From Candidatus Omnitrophota bacterium (GTDB lineage: Bacteria > Omnitrophota > Gorgyraeia > Aquiviventales > Aquiviventaceae), in assembly GCA_016192545.1 (NCBI GenBank), contig JACPTX010000053.1, forward strand, positions 1,129-65,128: DNA of 64,000 bases. Reading direction: 5' to 3'. The translations under genes were made by a program, and so were the position numbers. Every line of letters begins with the position of its first letter. The first letter of the stretch is position 1. This document shows positions 5,136 through 58,518 of this stretch, one piece after another. Below the pieces are notes generated by a model, which had not been told where the DNA came from, searched no databases, and saw only the letters and a list, made by a program, of their open reading frames with translations.

Positions 5136-6260
5136 TCAGACTTCAAGCACTTTCGGCGCTTCGGTGAGGAGCCGATAACCGTCCCGGGTGACGACGGCCA
5201 TGTCCTCGATGCGCATGCCGCCGGCGTCGGCGTAGTAGAGGCCCGGCTCGACCGTCACCACCATCCCTGCGCGCAGCGTGTCAGGGCGCGGGTTGATGCG
5301 GGGCGGCTCGTGGATTTCCAGCCCCACGCCGTGGCCGGTGCCGTGGAAGAAACCCTGCATGCGCCCGTCCTGCTCGCCGGTCTGAAAGCCTAACGACTCG
5401 AAGTGTTCGAGGATCGCCTTGTGGATGGCGGAGCCGTCCACCCCGTCGCGGATCAATCGGTAGGCGATCTCCTGCCCTCCCTGCACCGCCTCGAACATCC
5501 GGCGGACCTTGTCGGACGCCTTCCCCTTCACGACGGTGCGGGTGATGTCGGCGAAATAGCGCGTCACGGCGTGCTGGGGAAACACGTCCATCACGATCGG
5601 CTCGTGCGCGCGCAGGGGCCCCGAGCCTTCGTTGTGGGGGTCCACCGCCTGCAGGCCCGGCGCCACGATGGTGTGCTGGCCCACGCAGTCGCGCTCCATC
5701 ATCTGCAGGTGGAGGACCTTGCGGATGAACTCGACGGTGAGCGGCTTGCCGCCGATGCGCAGCGTCCCGTCCGGCAGGATCTCCGAATTGCGGATCAGCT
5801 CGATCGCGCACGCCAGCGCCTCCTCGGTCGCGCGCAGGGTCCGGGTGATGGCCGCGATTTCCTCCTCGGACTTGATCAGGCGCTCCGGGTAGAACGGCTC
5901 GGGCTTGGCCGCGACCTCATAGCCCCGCTGGCGCAGCCCGTCGGCGTAATGGACGCTGAAGTCGAGCGGCACCTCGATGGCCTGCACGCCGTGGCCCTTG
6001 AGCACCTCGTCCACCACGTCCACGAACCCCGCCTCGGCGCCGAGCCGGCGCTTGGCCTGCGCCGCGAACTTCGCGTAAGACAGCACGTCGGTGACCGTGG
6101 CCTGCGCGCGGGCCCGGTCAATCTCCAGGTCGCTCATCACGAGGATCTTGCGGCCGTTAATCTGTATGAAGATGAAGGCGTCCGGCGCCAGGAACCGGGT
6201 CGCGTAATAGAGGTTGGCGTTCTTCTCGCTGTCCGCGATGATGAGGCGGGCGGTGCTCAT
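5136..6260 (-). CDS. M24 family Xaa-Pro aminopeptidase
   Basis: 374 aa with creatinase-like N domain and pita-bread C domain carrying metal ligands (DVFPQ...YFADITRT, HGTGHGVGLEIHE, VEPGLY, RIED). Confidence 0.85.
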   Translation of the reverse strand: MSTARLIIADSEKNANLYYATRFLAPDAFIFIQINGRKILVMSDLEIDRARAQATVTDVLSYAKFAAQAKRRLGAEAGFVDVVDEVLKGHGVQAIEVPLDFSVHYADGLRQRGYEVAAKPEPFYPERLIKSEEEIAAITRTLRATEEALACAIELIRNSEILPDGTLRIGGKPLTVEFIRKVLHLQMMERDCVGQHTIVAPGLQAVDPHNEGSGPLRAHEPIVMDVFPQHAVTRYFADITRTVVKGKASDKVRRMFEAVQGGQEIAYRLIRDGVDGSAIHKAILEHFESLGFQTGEQDGRMQGFFHGTGHGVGLEIHEPPRINPRPDTLRAGMVVTVEPGLYYADAGGMRIEDMAVVTRDGYRLLTEAPKVLEV

Positions 6261-8178: not shown

Positions 8179-8239
8179 GGTTTGCGGGGACACGATATTG
8201 TGTCCTATCGCTATTTCGCATATCGTGTCCCCGGAATTA
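8179..8239 (+). repeat. 61-bp hairpin repeat, copy 1 (second copy at 18699..18759)
   Basis: ggtttgcGGGGACACGATATtgtgtcctatcgctatttcgcATATCGTGTCCCCggaatta. Identical to 18699..18759 except one base (8184 g vs 18704 c). Has a 13-bp stem and 21-nt loop. Both copies are in the same orientation. Confidence 0.9.
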
Positions 8240-8304: not shown

Positions 8305-8400
8305 CTGGTTGTGCTGAAAAAGGCAAACTATCCGAAAGGGTAGGACGCAAAGCTACCGGTCCCGGTGCCAGGCACCGGCGATAGCGGGGCTGCCAGCGTA
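8305..8400 (+). promoter_or_regulatory. c-di-GMP-I (GEMM-I) riboswitch aptamer
   Basis: GGCAAACUAUCCGAAAGGGUAGGACGCAAAGCUACCGG...CCGGCGAUAGCGGGGCUGCCAGC aligns block by block with the V. cholerae Vc2 aptamer as recalled. Shared blocks are GGCAAAC, a GAAA-capped P2 hairpin, GACGCAAAGC, a P3 CCGG/CCGG stem and AGCGGGG. GCUG(8313-16)/CAGC(8394-97) can close P1. Confidence 0.85.
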
Positions 8401-18698: not shown

Positions 18699-18759
18699 GG
18701 TTTCCGGGGACACGATATTGTGTCCTATCGCTATTTCGCATATCGTGTCCCCGGAATTA
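18699..18759 (+). repeat. 61-bp hairpin repeat, copy 2 (first copy at 8179..8239)
   Basis: Begins 2 nt after the diguanylate cyclase stop. Same orientation as copy 1. Confidence 0.9.
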
Positions 18760-30183: not shown

Positions 30184-32082
30184 GGATCCCGCGTGCGCCA
30201 GGGCCGGCGTGCTGCTCTCCGCCCGGCAGCTTGAGCAGCGGGGCGGATCCGCCCCCGGCCTCGACAGGTGGGCGGAAAACTCGTCGCGGAACTTCGTGAC
30301 GTAGCTCTGCACGGGCCAGGCCGCCGCGTCCGCGAAGACGCAGATCGTCCGGCCTTCCATGTTGGTCGCCGCGGCCAGCAGGATGTCCAGATCGTGCGGA
30401 CGTCCCTGGCCGCCGGCGATCCGCTGGATGATCTTGTAGATCCACCCCGTCCCCTCGCGGCAGGGCGAGCACTGGCCGCACGATTCATGCGCGAAGAACT
30501 TGGCCGCGTAGAGGAGCGCCCGCACCATGCACACGGTCTCGTCCATCGCGATGATGCCGGCCGAGCCGGCCATGGTCCCGGCGGCCAGCAGCGAGTCGAA
30601 ATCCATGCGGACGTCAATTTCATCCGCGCGCAGGATCTTCGCCGACAGCCCGCCCGGCACGACCGCCTTGAGGTGGCGCCCCTCAGGAATCCCGCCCGCA
30701 TAGTCGAAGATCAGCTCGCGCAGCGTCACCCCCTGCGAGGCCTCGTACAGCCCCGGCTGGTTCACATGCCCGCTGACGCTGAACAGGCGCGTGCCGCCGG
30801 ACTTCCCGTAGCCCAGCTTCGCGAACCAGTCGCCGCCTTTCTGGAGGATCGTCGGGACGCACGCCAGGGTTTCGACGTTGTTGATCACCGTCGGACAACC
30901 GAACAATCCGCTGATGGCGGGAAACGGCGGCTTGAGGCGCGGGAAGCCCTTCTTGCCCTCGAGCGATTCGAGCAGCGCGGTCTCCTCCCCGCAGATGTAG
31001 GCCCCGGCGCCTCGGTGGATGGTCACGTCGAAGTCCGCGTCGCTGTTGAAGATCCGCTTGCCGAGGAAGCCGTACTGATAGGCGTCCGCCACCGCCTGCT
31101 GCAGTATGTTGGTCGGCTGCGCATATTCGCCGCGGATGTAGACGTACGCCTGCCGGCAGCCGGTCGCGTGCGCCGCGATGATCATGCCTTCCAGCAGGCG
31201 GTGCGGGTCGCGCTCGAGGATATAGCGGTCCTTGATCGTGCCCGGCTCGCCCTCATCCGCGTTGACGACGAGGTAGTGAGGTTTCGGGGGGATGATCCCA
31301 CGCCCTGCAACATCCGTCGAAGACGGATCGGCGCCGGAGGCGCCGGCCCGTTGGGCGGTTGCAGGGCGTGGGATGAAGCTCCACTTCTTGCCGGTCAGGA
31401 ATCCCGCCCCGCCCAGGCCGCGGAGGTTGGATTTCGTGACCTCCTCGATGATCTGTGCCGGCGACAGCTCGGTGACCGCCTTGCGCGCCATCTGATAGCC
31501 GTCGTCGCGGACGTAGGTCTGGATGAGGTGCGAGTCTTTGAGGCTGAAGCGCTTCGAGAGGACCGGCTCCACCAACCCCGGCGCGCCGCGGAACGGCGTC
31601 GAGATTGCGGCGACCTGCTCCGGATGCGTGACGAGCTGCTCAATCAGCTCAGGCGTGATCGGGCCGACATAGGCGTCGTTCACCTGACACATCGGCGCCT
31701 GCTCGCAGGCGCACAGACACTCGACGGTCGAGAGCGTAAACTGCCCGTCGGCAGTGGTCTGGCCCGGGCTGATGCCGAGCCGTTCGGACAACTGCTTCAC
31801 GCATTGCTCGCTGCCGCGCAGCCAGCAGGAGACGTTGCTGCACGCTTGCACGTGGAATTTCCCGACGGGCTTGCGGTGAAACAGCGTATAAAACGTGACG
31901 ACTTCATGGACATGGGCGACGGACACGCCTAGCAGATTCGCGGTCCACTGCTCCGCCTCATCCGAAATAAACCCGAACCGCTCCTGGACCAGGCACAGGA
32001 CCGGCAGCATCGCCGCCTGCTTGCGCGGATACTTCGCCAGGATCACCTCTGCGTCCTTCCGGAGCGGTTCGAAGTCCGCCAT
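30175..32082 (-). CDS. nuoEF: Fused NADH-quinone oxidoreductase subunits E and F
   Basis: One 635-aa frame from ATG 32082 (TGATG junction with nuoD). The NuoE part has CSNVSCWLRG...STVECLCACEQAPM. The NuoF part has RGLGGAGFLTGKKWSF, NADEGEPGT and ESCGQCSPCREG. No stop separates the two parts. Confidence 0.85.
   Translation of the reverse strand: MADFEPLRKDAEVILAKYPRKQAAMLPVLCLVQERFGFISDEAEQWTANLLGVSVAHVHEVVTFYTLFHRKPVGKFHVQACSNVSCWLRGSEQCVKQLSERLGISPGQTTADGQFTLSTVECLCACEQAPMCQVNDAYVGPITPELIEQLVTHPEQVAAISTPFRGAPGLVEPVLSKRFSLKDSHLIQTYVRDDGYQMARKAVTELSPAQIIEEVTKSNLRGLGGAGFLTGKKWSFIPRPATAQRAGASGADPSSTDVAGRGIIPPKPHYLVVNADEGEPGTIKDRYILERDPHRLLEGMIIAAHATGCRQAYVYIRGEYAQPTNILQQAVADAYQYGFLGKRIFNSDADFDVTIHRGAGAYICGEETALLESLEGKKGFPRLKPPFPAISGLFGCPTVINNVETLACVPTILQKGGDWFAKLGYGKSGGTRLFSVSGHVNQPGLYEASQGVTLRELIFDYAGGIPEGRHLKAVVPGGLSAKILRADEIDVRMDFDSLLAAGTMAGSAGIIAMDETVCMVRALLYAAKFFAHESCGQCSPCREGTGWIYKIIQRIAGGQGRPHDLDILLAAATNMEGRTICVFADAAAWPVQSYVTKFRDEFSAHLSRPGADPPRCSSCRAESSTPALAHAGSHG
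31295..31374. repeat. In-frame palindromic insertion inside the nuoF part of nuoEF
   Basis: 17-bp perfect inverted arms ATCCCACGCCCTGCAAC ... GTTGCAGGGCGTGGGAT with an inner hairpin ATCCGTCgaaGACGGAT. GGGATGA direct repeats lie exactly 81 bp apart (31289 and 31370). Deleting 81 bp restores the canonical KWSFIPPKPHYLVVNADEGEPG. Confidence 0.8.
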
Positions 32083-38924: not shown

Positions 38925-38969
38925 AAAAAGTGACAGTCACTTTTTCCAAAAAAAGTGACTGTCACTTTT
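38925..38969. repeat. Paired AAAAGTGACWGTCACTTTT palindromic repeats (family 2)
   Basis: AAAAAGTGACAGTCACTTTTT-cc-AAAAAAAGTGACTGTCACTTTT in the divergent intergenic region. The same family occurs at 58460-58518. Confidence 0.9.
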
Positions 38970-57587: not shown

Positions 57588-58505
57588 GTGGCGTTGGCGC
57601 AGGACCGCTTCAAGGCGCTCTACCCGTTCGACTCCCATTGGTTGGATCTCGGAGGCCTGCGGTACCACTATGTGGATGAAGGCCGCGGGGAGCCGGTCGT
57701 CCTCCTCCACGGCAATCCGACGTGGTCCTTCTACTATCGCCGCCTCATTCTGGATCTTCGGCAGCGCTACCGCGTCATCGCCCCGGACCACATCGGCTGC
57801 GGCTTCTCCGACAAGCCGCAGCGGTATGCCTACACGCTCGAGCGGCACATCGCGAACGTCCAGGCCCTGATCGAGCGTCTGGGGTTGGCGCGCCTCAGCC
57901 TCGTCATGCACGATTGGGGCGGGCCGATTGGCATGGGCTACGCCGCGCGCCATCCGCACGCGGTGGCCCGCTTCGTGGTCTTGAATACCGCGGCCTTTTG
58001 GATGCCCCGCTTCATGCCTCTGCGCCTCCGCCTGTGCCTCGTCCCGGTGGTGAGCGAATGGGCGATCCGGCGCTTCAACCTCTTTGCGCGGTCGGCCCTG
58101 GCGGTGGCCTGCCGGCATCAGGAGCGCATGACGCCCGAGGTGAAGGCGGGCTACCTCGCCCCCTACGACAGCTACGCCAACCGGATTGCGACGGTGCGAT
58201 TCGTGCAGGACATCCCGCGCACCAAATCCCATACCAGCTATCGCGCGCTCGAAGCCGTCGAGCAGGGCCTGGCGCAGTTGGCCCGCCATCCGATGCTGAT
58301 CATCTGGGGGGCCAGGGACCCGGTGTTCACCACGGCGGTCCTCAGGTCATGGCAGGAGCGGTTCCCGCGCGCCATCGTGAAATCCCTCGAGGACGCGGGG
58401 CATTACGTGATGGAAGACGCCTCTGAGCGGATCATCCCCTGGGTGAACGAGTTCCTAACGAAAAGTGACAGTCACTTTTCCAGTAAGGACCCGCATGAAA
58501 AGTGA
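57588..58505 (+). CDS. oleB: OleB-like alpha/beta hydrolase (haloalkane-dehalogenase-like beta-lactone decarboxylase)
   Basis: GTG start at 57588, 12 nt after the oleA stop. Contains YPFDSHWLDLGGLRYHYVDEG, LLHGNPTWSFYYRRLI, APDHIGCGFSDKP and VMHDWGGPIG. The last ~14 codons are repeat-encoded. Confidence 0.8.
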   Translation: MALAQDRFKALYPFDSHWLDLGGLRYHYVDEGRGEPVVLLHGNPTWSFYYRRLILDLRQRYRVIAPDHIGCGFSDKPQRYAYTLERHIANVQALIERLGLARLSLVMHDWGGPIGMGYAARHPHAVARFVVLNTAAFWMPRFMPLRLRLCLVPVVSEWAIRRFNLFARSALAVACRHQERMTPEVKAGYLAPYDSYANRIATVRFVQDIPRTKSHTSYRALEAVEQGLAQLARHPMLIIWGARDPVFTTAVLRSWQERFPRAIVKSLEDAGHYVMEDASERIIPWVNEFLTKSDSHFSSKDPHEK

Positions 58506-58518
58506 CTGTCACTTTTTC
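58460..58518. repeat. Paired AAAAGTGACWGTCACTTTT repeats (family 2) at the oleB/oleC junction
   Basis: GAAAAGTGACAGTCACTTTTC (58460-80) and GAAAAGTGACTGTCACTTTTTC (58497-518). The oleB stop TGA (58503-05) lies inside the second copy. Confidence 0.9.

Follow-up and report, generated by a model that had tools for sequence, protein, structure and literature searches.

A palindromic insert in frame in an Omnitrophota nuoF gene, probably one copy of a dispersed MITE-like family

Rickettsia palindromic elements (RPEs; Ogata et al. 2000, summarised in PMC10969869) are ~100–150 nt long, and nearly half of their copies in R. conorii lie in genes. ERIC, QMITE1/2 of Coxiella, MITEb/e of Anabaena and the Correia elements of Neisseria are non-autonomous elements with terminal inverted repeats (TIRs) that occasionally form in-frame fusions with open reading frames (ORFs), and their target-site duplications (TSDs) are TA for Correia and 7–9 bp for QMITE2 (PMC10969869, PMC5896051). 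TSDs of 3 bp, including TNA, are typical of the PHIS (PIF/Harbinger-IS5) superfamily, the NuwaII group of which targets C-TNA-G (PMC4482050). Here we describe a palindrome that lies in frame within the fused nuoE-nuoF gene, NuoF being the NADH-binding subunit of respiratory Complex I, of an uncultured Candidatus Omnitrophota bacterium (GenBank assembly GCA_016192545.1), in a stretch of 64,000 nt on contig JACPTX010000053.1 (positions 1,129 to 65,128, forward strand) that was analysed as a whole and is hereafter called the window; loci and NuoEF proteins used for comparison carry L and P numbers, respectively. We suggest, with a probability of roughly 85%, that it is one copy of a non-autonomous, noncoding palindromic element of 78 nt with ends TCCC...GGGA, resembling a transposable element of the miniature, inverted-repeat kind (MITE).

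On the + strand the region 31289–31376 reads GGGA-TGA-TCCCACGCCCTGCAAC...GTTGCAGGGCGTGGGA-TGA, and its palindromic structure is real and far beyond chance: the minimum free energy of a 106-nt stretch is -64.6 kcal/mol, as compared with -39.2 +/- 3.6 kcal/mol for 200 dinucleotide shuffles (z = -7.05), none of which folds as well. The perfect 17-bp inverted repeat with inner hairpins that a first-pass annotation, made from the letters alone, had noticed is indeed present (hairpins at 31312–31356; Table 1), and the predicted fold places the 17-bp outer stem around three hairpins with nearly all junction bases paired; the same four-way junction also results when DNA parameters are used and when the opposite strand is folded. 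Since the sequence is near-symmetric, the orientation of the element is ambiguous, and covariance model R1 matches it on both strands (67.4 bits, E ~1e-17). No Rfam 15 covariance model matches 31289–31376 at its gathering score, the sole hit in the window being a cyclic di-GMP (c-di-GMP) riboswitch at 8313–8398.

The palindrome belongs to a dispersed family. A scan with the pattern ATCCCNCNNCCTGC-N(40-70)-GCAGGNNGNGGGAT, composed of the positions common to the window element and a second nuoF element described below, matched 51 stretches in species-representative genomes and 78 in metagenome contigs; carriage of the family by phages was rejected, as viral contigs gave no pattern match. Once duplicates were removed, 114 distinct copies of 68–97 nt remained; some copies of the family measure 105–155 nt, and covariance model R1, which was built from twelve 80-nt copies, adds further, longer and tandem copies in the loci. 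The genomic carriers are mostly Candidatus Omnitrophota, Elusimicrobia and metagenome-assembled genomes (MAGs) that bear the label Planctomycetales; most come from groundwater, and a genome typically holds several loci (at least nine in JACOVU01, five in MGUS01, and four each in CAZPKZ01 and JACQRA01). The termini TCCCACCACCTGC...GCAGGTGGTGGGA are conserved (consensus ATCCCACCACCTGC, with 13–14 nt conserved across more than 110 copies). The inner regions form subfamilies at 70–98% identity, with an overall median of 0.55 vs 0.52 for shuffled sequences, and their folds are more stable than those of shuffles (median z of -3.0, with 76% under -2), with three hairpin loops in 65 of 108 elements and two in 29. 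The nearest relative of the window element is a copy in an oxidoreductase gene at L051, which shares 71% of the inner region, a similar peptide (IPRPAAGRNGPALCADPPSADAAGRGI) and the terminus subtype; its counterpart of the hairpin at 31312–31328 differs by one compensatory pair. Full-text literature searches found no description of this element family or of a MITE in nuoF, and this large family is apparently new and undescribed.

Several candidate copies were set aside. The pattern matches at L016, L024, L033, L035, L042, L052 and L091 were treated as chance matches, being single long hairpins or lacking TNA; all of these except the last come from Eubacteriales, Gammaproteobacteria, Micromonosporaceae, Kineosporiaceae, Clostridiales and Prolixibacteraceae. 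Within the window, exact arms (up to 3 mismatches) and consensus arms (up to 2) match only the element at 31296–31373, and a weak model hit at 5639–5718 (24.5 bits with filters off; termini GTCCACCGCCTGCAG/CTGCAGGTGGAGGAC), was dismissed as a chance match, because its interior is without a fold (z = -0.09) and because it coincides with the conserved core that an M24 peptidase gene (5136–6260, minus strand) encodes.

The boundaries of the element were set by an analysis of TSDs across the family. The three bases outside TCCC...GGGA are identical on both sides in 93 of the 114 copies (TCA in 46, TGA in 34, TTA in 7 and TAA in 6), and the fourth is also identical in only one copy. Because the middle base is identical, and not complementary, on the two sides, the flanking TNA is a TSD and does not prolong the palindrome. 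As reconstructed, the target reads a-T(C/G)A-t with little further preference, and many target sites are ATGA/TCAT, that is, overlaps of start and stop codons. The direct repeats GGGATGA reported by the first-pass annotation are found 81 bp apart, at 31289–31295 and 31370–31376, but as a 7-bp target duplication they do not stand: the family-wide duplication is 3 bp long (here TGA/TCA), and the extra 4 bp are a coincidence of host and terminus, because the host Ile-Pro codons (aTC CCn) equal the terminus TCCC. TCCC/GGGA adjoins the TSD at only 7 of 92 sites. Copies in tandem have one TNA in common, and at three places head-to-tail copies have only this shared TNA between them (L120:236-326/328-419, L120:1501-1591/1596-1687 and L089:3793-3886/3888-3976). 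It seems that the duplication next to a resident copy is a preferred site for new insertions, and the abutted ends of tandems are reminiscent of the circle or dimer junctions of insertion sequences (ISs).

Relatives of the host gene provide empty sites. Among the 120 best NuoEF homologues, which are 62–78% identical and were aligned, 117 exhibit the canonical 23-residue segment GKKWSFIPKxSxKPxFLVVNADE with its short loop, which is the opposite of palindrome-free close relatives carrying a homologous long loop. The empty site reads TT(C/T) ATC CCG AAG (L004). Relative to the canonical length, the loop is extended by 24 residues in the window protein (P0001), by 30 in P0021 and by 9 in P0007. 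The gene of P0021 (locus L001) carries a 90-nt insert at the identical TTC-ATC position, where the TCATCCC repeat is also present; its element likewise folds into an outer stem and three hairpins (-73.8 kcal/mol), with inner sequences unrelated to those of the window element. Removal of the 90 nt (element plus one TSD) from L001 yields NFIPKDASKPHY, which is exactly the canonical sequence. Removal of 81 nt from the window gene yields a contiguous KWSFIPPKPHY, which is three residues shorter than the canonical KWSFIPKDSSKPHY of relatives, so that the host loop itself must also have changed. On the gene strand, 31266–31292 reads ...ATC CCC CCG AAA CCT CAC, encoding PPKPH vs the canonical PKDSSKPH (net -3 codons), and this loss beside the insert may reflect either a subsequent adjustment of the length of the loop or a state particular to the lineage. 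The first-pass claims that 27 residues are added in frame and that their deletion restores the conserved motif hence hold for the in-frame insert and the contiguous sequence, but the net gain over relatives is 24 residues and the restored sequence is three residues short of canonical; the motif itself, then given as KWSxMPK...Y(L/I)xCNADExEPG, agrees with alignments to PDB entries.

Two observations concern these comparison loci. At L001, a second copy of the family (L001:3276-3362) sits exactly on the nuoD stop codon (TGA-TCCC...GGGA-TGA) and precedes short tandem repeats of ATTGCGG and of AAAATCC, which lie in the spacer between nuoD and nuoE. The 9-residue loop of P0007 (L002/L003; IPSSGLPSV) lies close to the target site of the element and is without TIR or TSD; in this related Omnitrophota nuo operon a small ORF and a PIN-domain gene, resembling a toxin-antitoxin pair, are located between nuoEF and nuoG (L002/L003:5100-5755).

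On comparison of sequences, the two nuoF insertions at one TCA arose independently, because the host proteins fall into different clades and the elements represent different subtypes. In a neighbour-joining tree of NuoEF built with the insert columns removed, the window protein clusters with P0002, P0003 and P0004 and P0021 with P0038, P0028 and P0031, all of these neighbours being uninserted; P0021 ranks only 32nd closest of 44 to P0001 and is its nearest neighbour in 0 of 100 bootstraps. The terminus subtype in the window, CCCACGCCC, is common to L027, L051, L071 and L111, whereas that in L001 is CCCCCCACC. A single ancestral insertion into nuoF is ruled out by the tree, the identity ranks and the differing terminus subtypes.

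Table 1. Coordinates of the element, its parts and its host gene in the window.
Feature	Position	Strand	Description
Element proper	31296..31373		78 nt, TCCCACGCCCTGCAAC...GTTGCAGGGCGTGGGA; terminal inverted repeats and three inner hairpins
Outer-stem arm 1	31295..31311		ATCCCACGCCCTGCAAC; holds the conserved terminus; 17 nt, 100% complementary to arm 2
First inner hairpin	31312..31328		ATCCGTC GAA GACGGAT on the + strand
Central inner hairpin	31329..31345		CGGCGCC GGA GGCGCCG
Third inner hairpin	31346..31356		GCCC GTT GGGC
Outer-stem arm 2	31358..31374		GTTGCAGGGCGTGGGAT; 17 nt, 100% complementary to arm 1
TSD copy 1	31293..31295		TGA on the + strand, TCA on the gene strand
TSD copy 2	31374..31376		TGA on the + strand, TCA on the gene strand (TC from the Phe codon TTC plus A from the Ile codon ATC)
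Translation of the 81 inserted bases	31293..31373	-	~residues 238-265 of NuoEF, IPRPATAQRAGASGADPSSTDVAGRGI
Host gene, fused nuoE-nuoF, 636 aa	30175..32085	-	Pfam, PDB matches, synteny

The identity of the host gene is supported from several sides: its protein (i) contains the Pfam domains 2Fe-2S_thioredx, Complex1_51K, SLBB and NADH_4Fe-4S, (ii) is matched by NuoF/Nqo1/NDUFV1 chains of the PDB with E-values down to 4.5e-134, and (iii) is 100% identical to NuoF of an NCBI Candidatus Omnitrophica MAG. The gene lies within an apparently intact nuoA-N-like operon that is syntenic with the Pfam-annotated relatives L001 and L004, and it is the only copy in the window, where tblastn revealed no nuoF paralogue. 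The insert comprises 27 codons in frame between KWSF and PKPHYLVVNADEGEPG and is rich in Pro, Gly, Ala and Ser; the stop-free phase (ATC-CCA-C..) of the element reads I-P-(P/R)-P-A...A-G-(G/R)-G-I, and peptides such as PATAQR, AGASGADPSSTDVAGR and GIIPPKPHYLVVNADEGEPGTIK would stem from its translation. The window protein keeps every column that is invariant across 43 aligned NuoEF sequences. In an AlphaFold2 model based on the 43-sequence alignment (mean predicted local distance difference test, pLDDT, 77.7; predicted template modelling score 0.82), residues 224–266, the insert included, have a pLDDT below 50, and the insert is thus predicted to be disordered. In Thermus Nqo1, Phe70, Phe78 and Phe205 stack on the adenine of NADH, and Gly67 and Glu97 contact the nicotinamide (PMC4694087, citing the NADH-bound Thermus structure). 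Residue 85 of Nqo1 corresponds to residue 123 of the query in the second matched stretch of the PDB alignment, and this mapping together with the conserved KWSF and NADE motifs puts the insert between the equivalents of Phe78 and Glu97, and hence puts the loop on the rim of the nucleotide pocket. The position tolerates extra length, since the native loop of M. smegmatis NuoF (8e9g_F) is 12–15 residues longer there in the PDB alignment. We infer that NuoF is functional, with a neutral or slightly deleterious surface loop.

Insertion in frame is a property of the in-gene copies as a group. The inserted length is divisible by three in all 11 independent in-gene copies, the two nuoF lineages among them, as compared with 24 of 95 other copies (Fisher p = 1.5e-6). 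All 11 are read in one phase, in which the termini encode I-P-P-P-A...A-G-G-G-(I/M) (the chance of a common phase is ~2e-5), and all are free of stop codons. For several hosts Pfam domains on both sides of the insert confirm the gene: at L116 it encodes UvrA, at L031 PolX/PHP, at L051 a pyridine-nucleotide disulfide oxidoreductase, at L057 a multihaem cytochrome c, at L045 a FecR-like protein, at L041 a hemerythrin and at L110 a membrane protein of the TMEM164 family. The remaining two copies are in a hypothetical protein (L065) and, at L022, in the N-terminal region of a radical-SAM protein. Readings in the other two phases were discarded, as they are confined to Arg-rich antisense frames of GC-rich DNA without Pfam support. 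Because the constraint on length and phase is what translation predicts, and what splicing, intein-like removal or bypass would not, we consider the in-gene copies as translated, and we infer that the mRNA is read straight through the insert. The uvrA gene offers a further observation: at L127, which carries the same uvrA as L116, a 108-nt copy is located in the leader (L127:231-338), and a further copy, of 80 nt (L127:1722-1801), separates in frame the UvrA DNA-binding domain from the second ABC module. Outside genes, the length of element plus TSD is 3n+2 in 64 of 95 copies, 3n in 24 and only 7 times 3n+1, which is a clear bias in length class.

The family combines TIRs, a TSD of fixed length, small size without a transposase gene or other coding capacity, multiple copies and empty sites, and we therefore classify the element as a MITE. 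It also exhibits the 3-bp TSD of the TNA/TWA type by which IS5 and PIF-Harbinger elements are recognised, and the same duplication presumably fits the IS1031 group of the IS5 family in ISfinder as well; to our knowledge, the terminus TCCCACCACCTGC is unlike any IS end. The element was integrated at the TCA across the Phe-Ile codons (TTC-ATC) of nuoF with duplication of this trinucleotide, and the added 81 nt, a multiple of three, are in the stop-free phase. NuoF would then have acquired a surface loop, flexible and probably disordered, that lies between the Phe stacking on adenine (KWSF) and NADEGEPG, on the rim of the NADH/FMN (flavin mononucleotide) pocket. A DDE transposase that cuts (A)TNA(T) with a 3-bp stagger, most likely one of the IS5/PIF-Harbinger superfamily, would have mobilised the element in trans. 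The insertion would be selfish or neutral and not functional, and the nuoF site may have been hit twice because its TCA is conserved and because it belongs to the few loops of an essential enzyme where 27–30 extra residues survive selection. That a palindromic mobile element had entered NuoF in frame was also the central claim of the first-pass annotation, and it is supported by the empty sites, the family of more than 110 copies, the TNA duplications and the in-frame copies elsewhere.

Several points weigh against the proposal of a selfish MITE: (i) the window allele occurs in one assembly only (the P0001 cluster has one member on one contig), (ii) the window contains only one copy of the family, (iii) in ~0.85 Mb of loci no arm pair 0.4–5 kb apart encloses a transposase, as an autonomous partner would, (iv) the IS5/PIF-Harbinger-type DDE transposase regarded as the most likely mobiliser is proposed by analogy of the TSD, and (v) four helices are kept perfectly by compensatory change, even within genes, which exceeds the needs of a decaying selfish MITE. 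The arm pairs considered as autonomous elements at L018, L030, L047, L107, L127 and other loci all turned out to be neighbouring or longer MITE copies.

The last of these points deserves closer consideration. In a model-guided alignment of 150 strand-hits, 93.2% of the pair cells are canonical and double-sided changes occur in 26 of 34 pairs; the covariation score is 0.48, vs 0.12 for shuffles and 0.03–0.08 for slid registers, where the alignment being fitted to the model, the inclusion of both strands of each copy and the presence of related sequences inflate such scores. The upkeep of the helices may reflect either selection, for recognition by a transposase or for a role of the RNA or DNA, or palindrome-templated repair. 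It is tempting to speculate that the four-way junction is required for a structure-recognising mobilisation or an RNA role and that the double capture of nuoF represents adaptive remodelling of Complex I in Omnitrophota, but we regard this as unlikely. Quite unlikely, too, is an exaptation of the nuoF copy, in which the insert or its DNA/RNA four-way junction would be retained for a function, be it tuning of NADH access or of the reactivity of the flavin site, or an mRNA structure affecting translation or stability of nuo. The occupation of the same site in two independent lineages, the perfectly kept structure (z = -7), the strong covariation across the family and the three residues missing from the host loop beside the insert, which could be compensatory, would all be in line with such a function. 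On the other hand, 117 of the 120 relatives do without the insert, the peptides that it encodes in the two lineages are alike only in the residues encoded by the termini, and the insert is predicted to be disordered; recurrence at the site is expected from the conserved TCA target combined with a selection filter, and compensatory changes in palindromes can arise by template-switch repair with no selection needed.

That the element remains untranslated, being cut out of the mRNA or passed over by the ribosome, for which the flanking TCATCCC would serve as take-off and landing sites as in the byps of Magnusiomyces mitochondria and in T4 gene 60, appears very improbable. Identical 7-nt flanks around a very stable hairpin structure do resemble bypass signals in form, and these bypass elements are likewise GC-rich palindromic coding inserts with matching flanking codons; they need not, however, be multiples of three and often contain stops, whereas here the copies are in frame, stop-free and in a single phase. 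Bypass or removal predicts free length and phase, in conflict with all 11 in-gene copies, and the 7-nt identity is peculiar to nuoF. No Rfam ribozyme or intron matches the site, and at 78 nt the element falls well short of the size of an intein or of a group I or II intron.

An artefact of assembly or sequencing, i.e., a repeat-induced chimera in a metagenome-assembled contig, is hardly credible: the allele is indeed known from one MAG contig, and false joins in assemblies can result from short dispersed repeats, but the insert is exactly in frame, has the correct TSD and a precise codon boundary, and is flanked on both sides by collinear nuoF. The P0021-type allele, which is the corresponding insertion in a different lineage, was recovered by independent assembly from at least three data sets (L001/L133, L102 and L023), which makes an artefact less likely still. 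Finally, a native, lineage-specific NuoF loop that is palindromic by coincidence, for which one could invoke the natural variation in length seen in M. smegmatis (~12–15 residues longer) and P0007 (9 residues longer, without repeat features), is effectively refuted by the 67-bit match to a dispersed family with its termini and TSD, and by the nearest relative of the element residing in the unrelated oxidoreductase gene at L051.

When compared with RPEs, the family described here is similar in that both are short noncoding palindromes inserted in frame in unrelated housekeeping genes, with a preferred frame and an added peptide (here in 11 independent copies), and both are apparently tolerated in surface loops. 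The families differ in (i) their hosts, which are free-living or episymbiotic groundwater Omnitrophota and Elusimicrobia here and obligate intracellular Alphaproteobacteria for RPEs, (ii) size (68–97 nt vs ~100–150 nt) and termini, (iii) the clear 3-bp TNA target duplication seen here, (iv) architecture, with a four-way junction of an outer stem and two to three variable, covarying hairpins here and a conserved peptide-coding core in RPEs, and (v) the fraction of copies in genes, which is ~10% of those found here vs nearly half in R. conorii. The analogy to RPEs drawn in the first-pass annotation is thus apt for the phenomenon but does not extend to membership, and we do not file the family as an RPE, from the published description of which it is set apart by host range, size, TSD and architecture.

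Repetitive extragenic palindromes (REPs) are single hairpins of 20–40 nt that are mobilised by RAYT (HUH) proteins, lie outside genes and have no TSD. Our family shares with REPs and with BIME-REPIN arrangements the nature of GC-rich, hairpin-forming dispersed repeats often found at gene ends, but its copy-specific TSD argues for a staggered-cut DDE mechanism. MITEs derived from PHIS/IS5 elements (e.g., Tourist-like) resemble it in their TIRs, the 3-bp T-N-A duplication, the weakly palindromic target, the small size and the multiple copies, whereas a multi-hairpin interior as found here is unusual for them. ERIC, QMITE, MITEb/e and Correia elements have other TSDs and fold into a single long hairpin, in contrast to the 3-bp TNA and the multiple hairpins of the present family, and in the papers found no intragenic MITE of these types is documented in a core subunit of Complex I.

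The window holds some other features as well. Two near-identical 55-nt hairpin repeats (TT[G/C]CGGGGACACGATATTGTGTCCTATCGCTATTTCGCATATCGTGTCCCCGGAA) at 8182–8236 and 18702–18756 constitute a second small repeat family that is distinct from the nuoF element, and the first of them lies ~77 nt upstream of the riboswitch mentioned above, a c-di-GMP-I-GGC aptamer on the + strand (RF03167; 67.7 bits vs a gathering score of 59, E = 7e-14). At 38926–38969 and 58461–58516, paired 19-nt palindromic boxes AAAAGTGAC-N-GTCACTTTT with spacings of 6 and 18 nt form AT-rich islands in a GC-rich genome and resemble paired operators to which a dimeric regulator would bind.

For specialists in mobile DNA or Complex I, the double hit at the NADH site, the strict phase and the four covarying helices are noteworthy, not paradigm-changing. 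In-frame palindromic colonisation of housekeeping genes, which has been held to be largely specific to Rickettsia, is now found in candidate-phylum bacteria as well, and the hallmarks of transposition, namely the TNA duplication and the exact empty sites, are cleaner here than in the Rickettsia case. For annotation, it is to be kept in mind that such inserts lengthen proteins and can cause repeat-related problems in assembly; conversely, the family may serve as a marker for typing strains and lineages among Omnitrophota and Elusimicrobia MAGs. It also represents a natural experiment on which protein loops, including the twice-hit loop at the NADH site of Complex I, tolerate 25–30 extra residues, and its single reading phase together with the covarying four-helix architecture provides testable clues to selection on both peptide and nucleic-acid structure.

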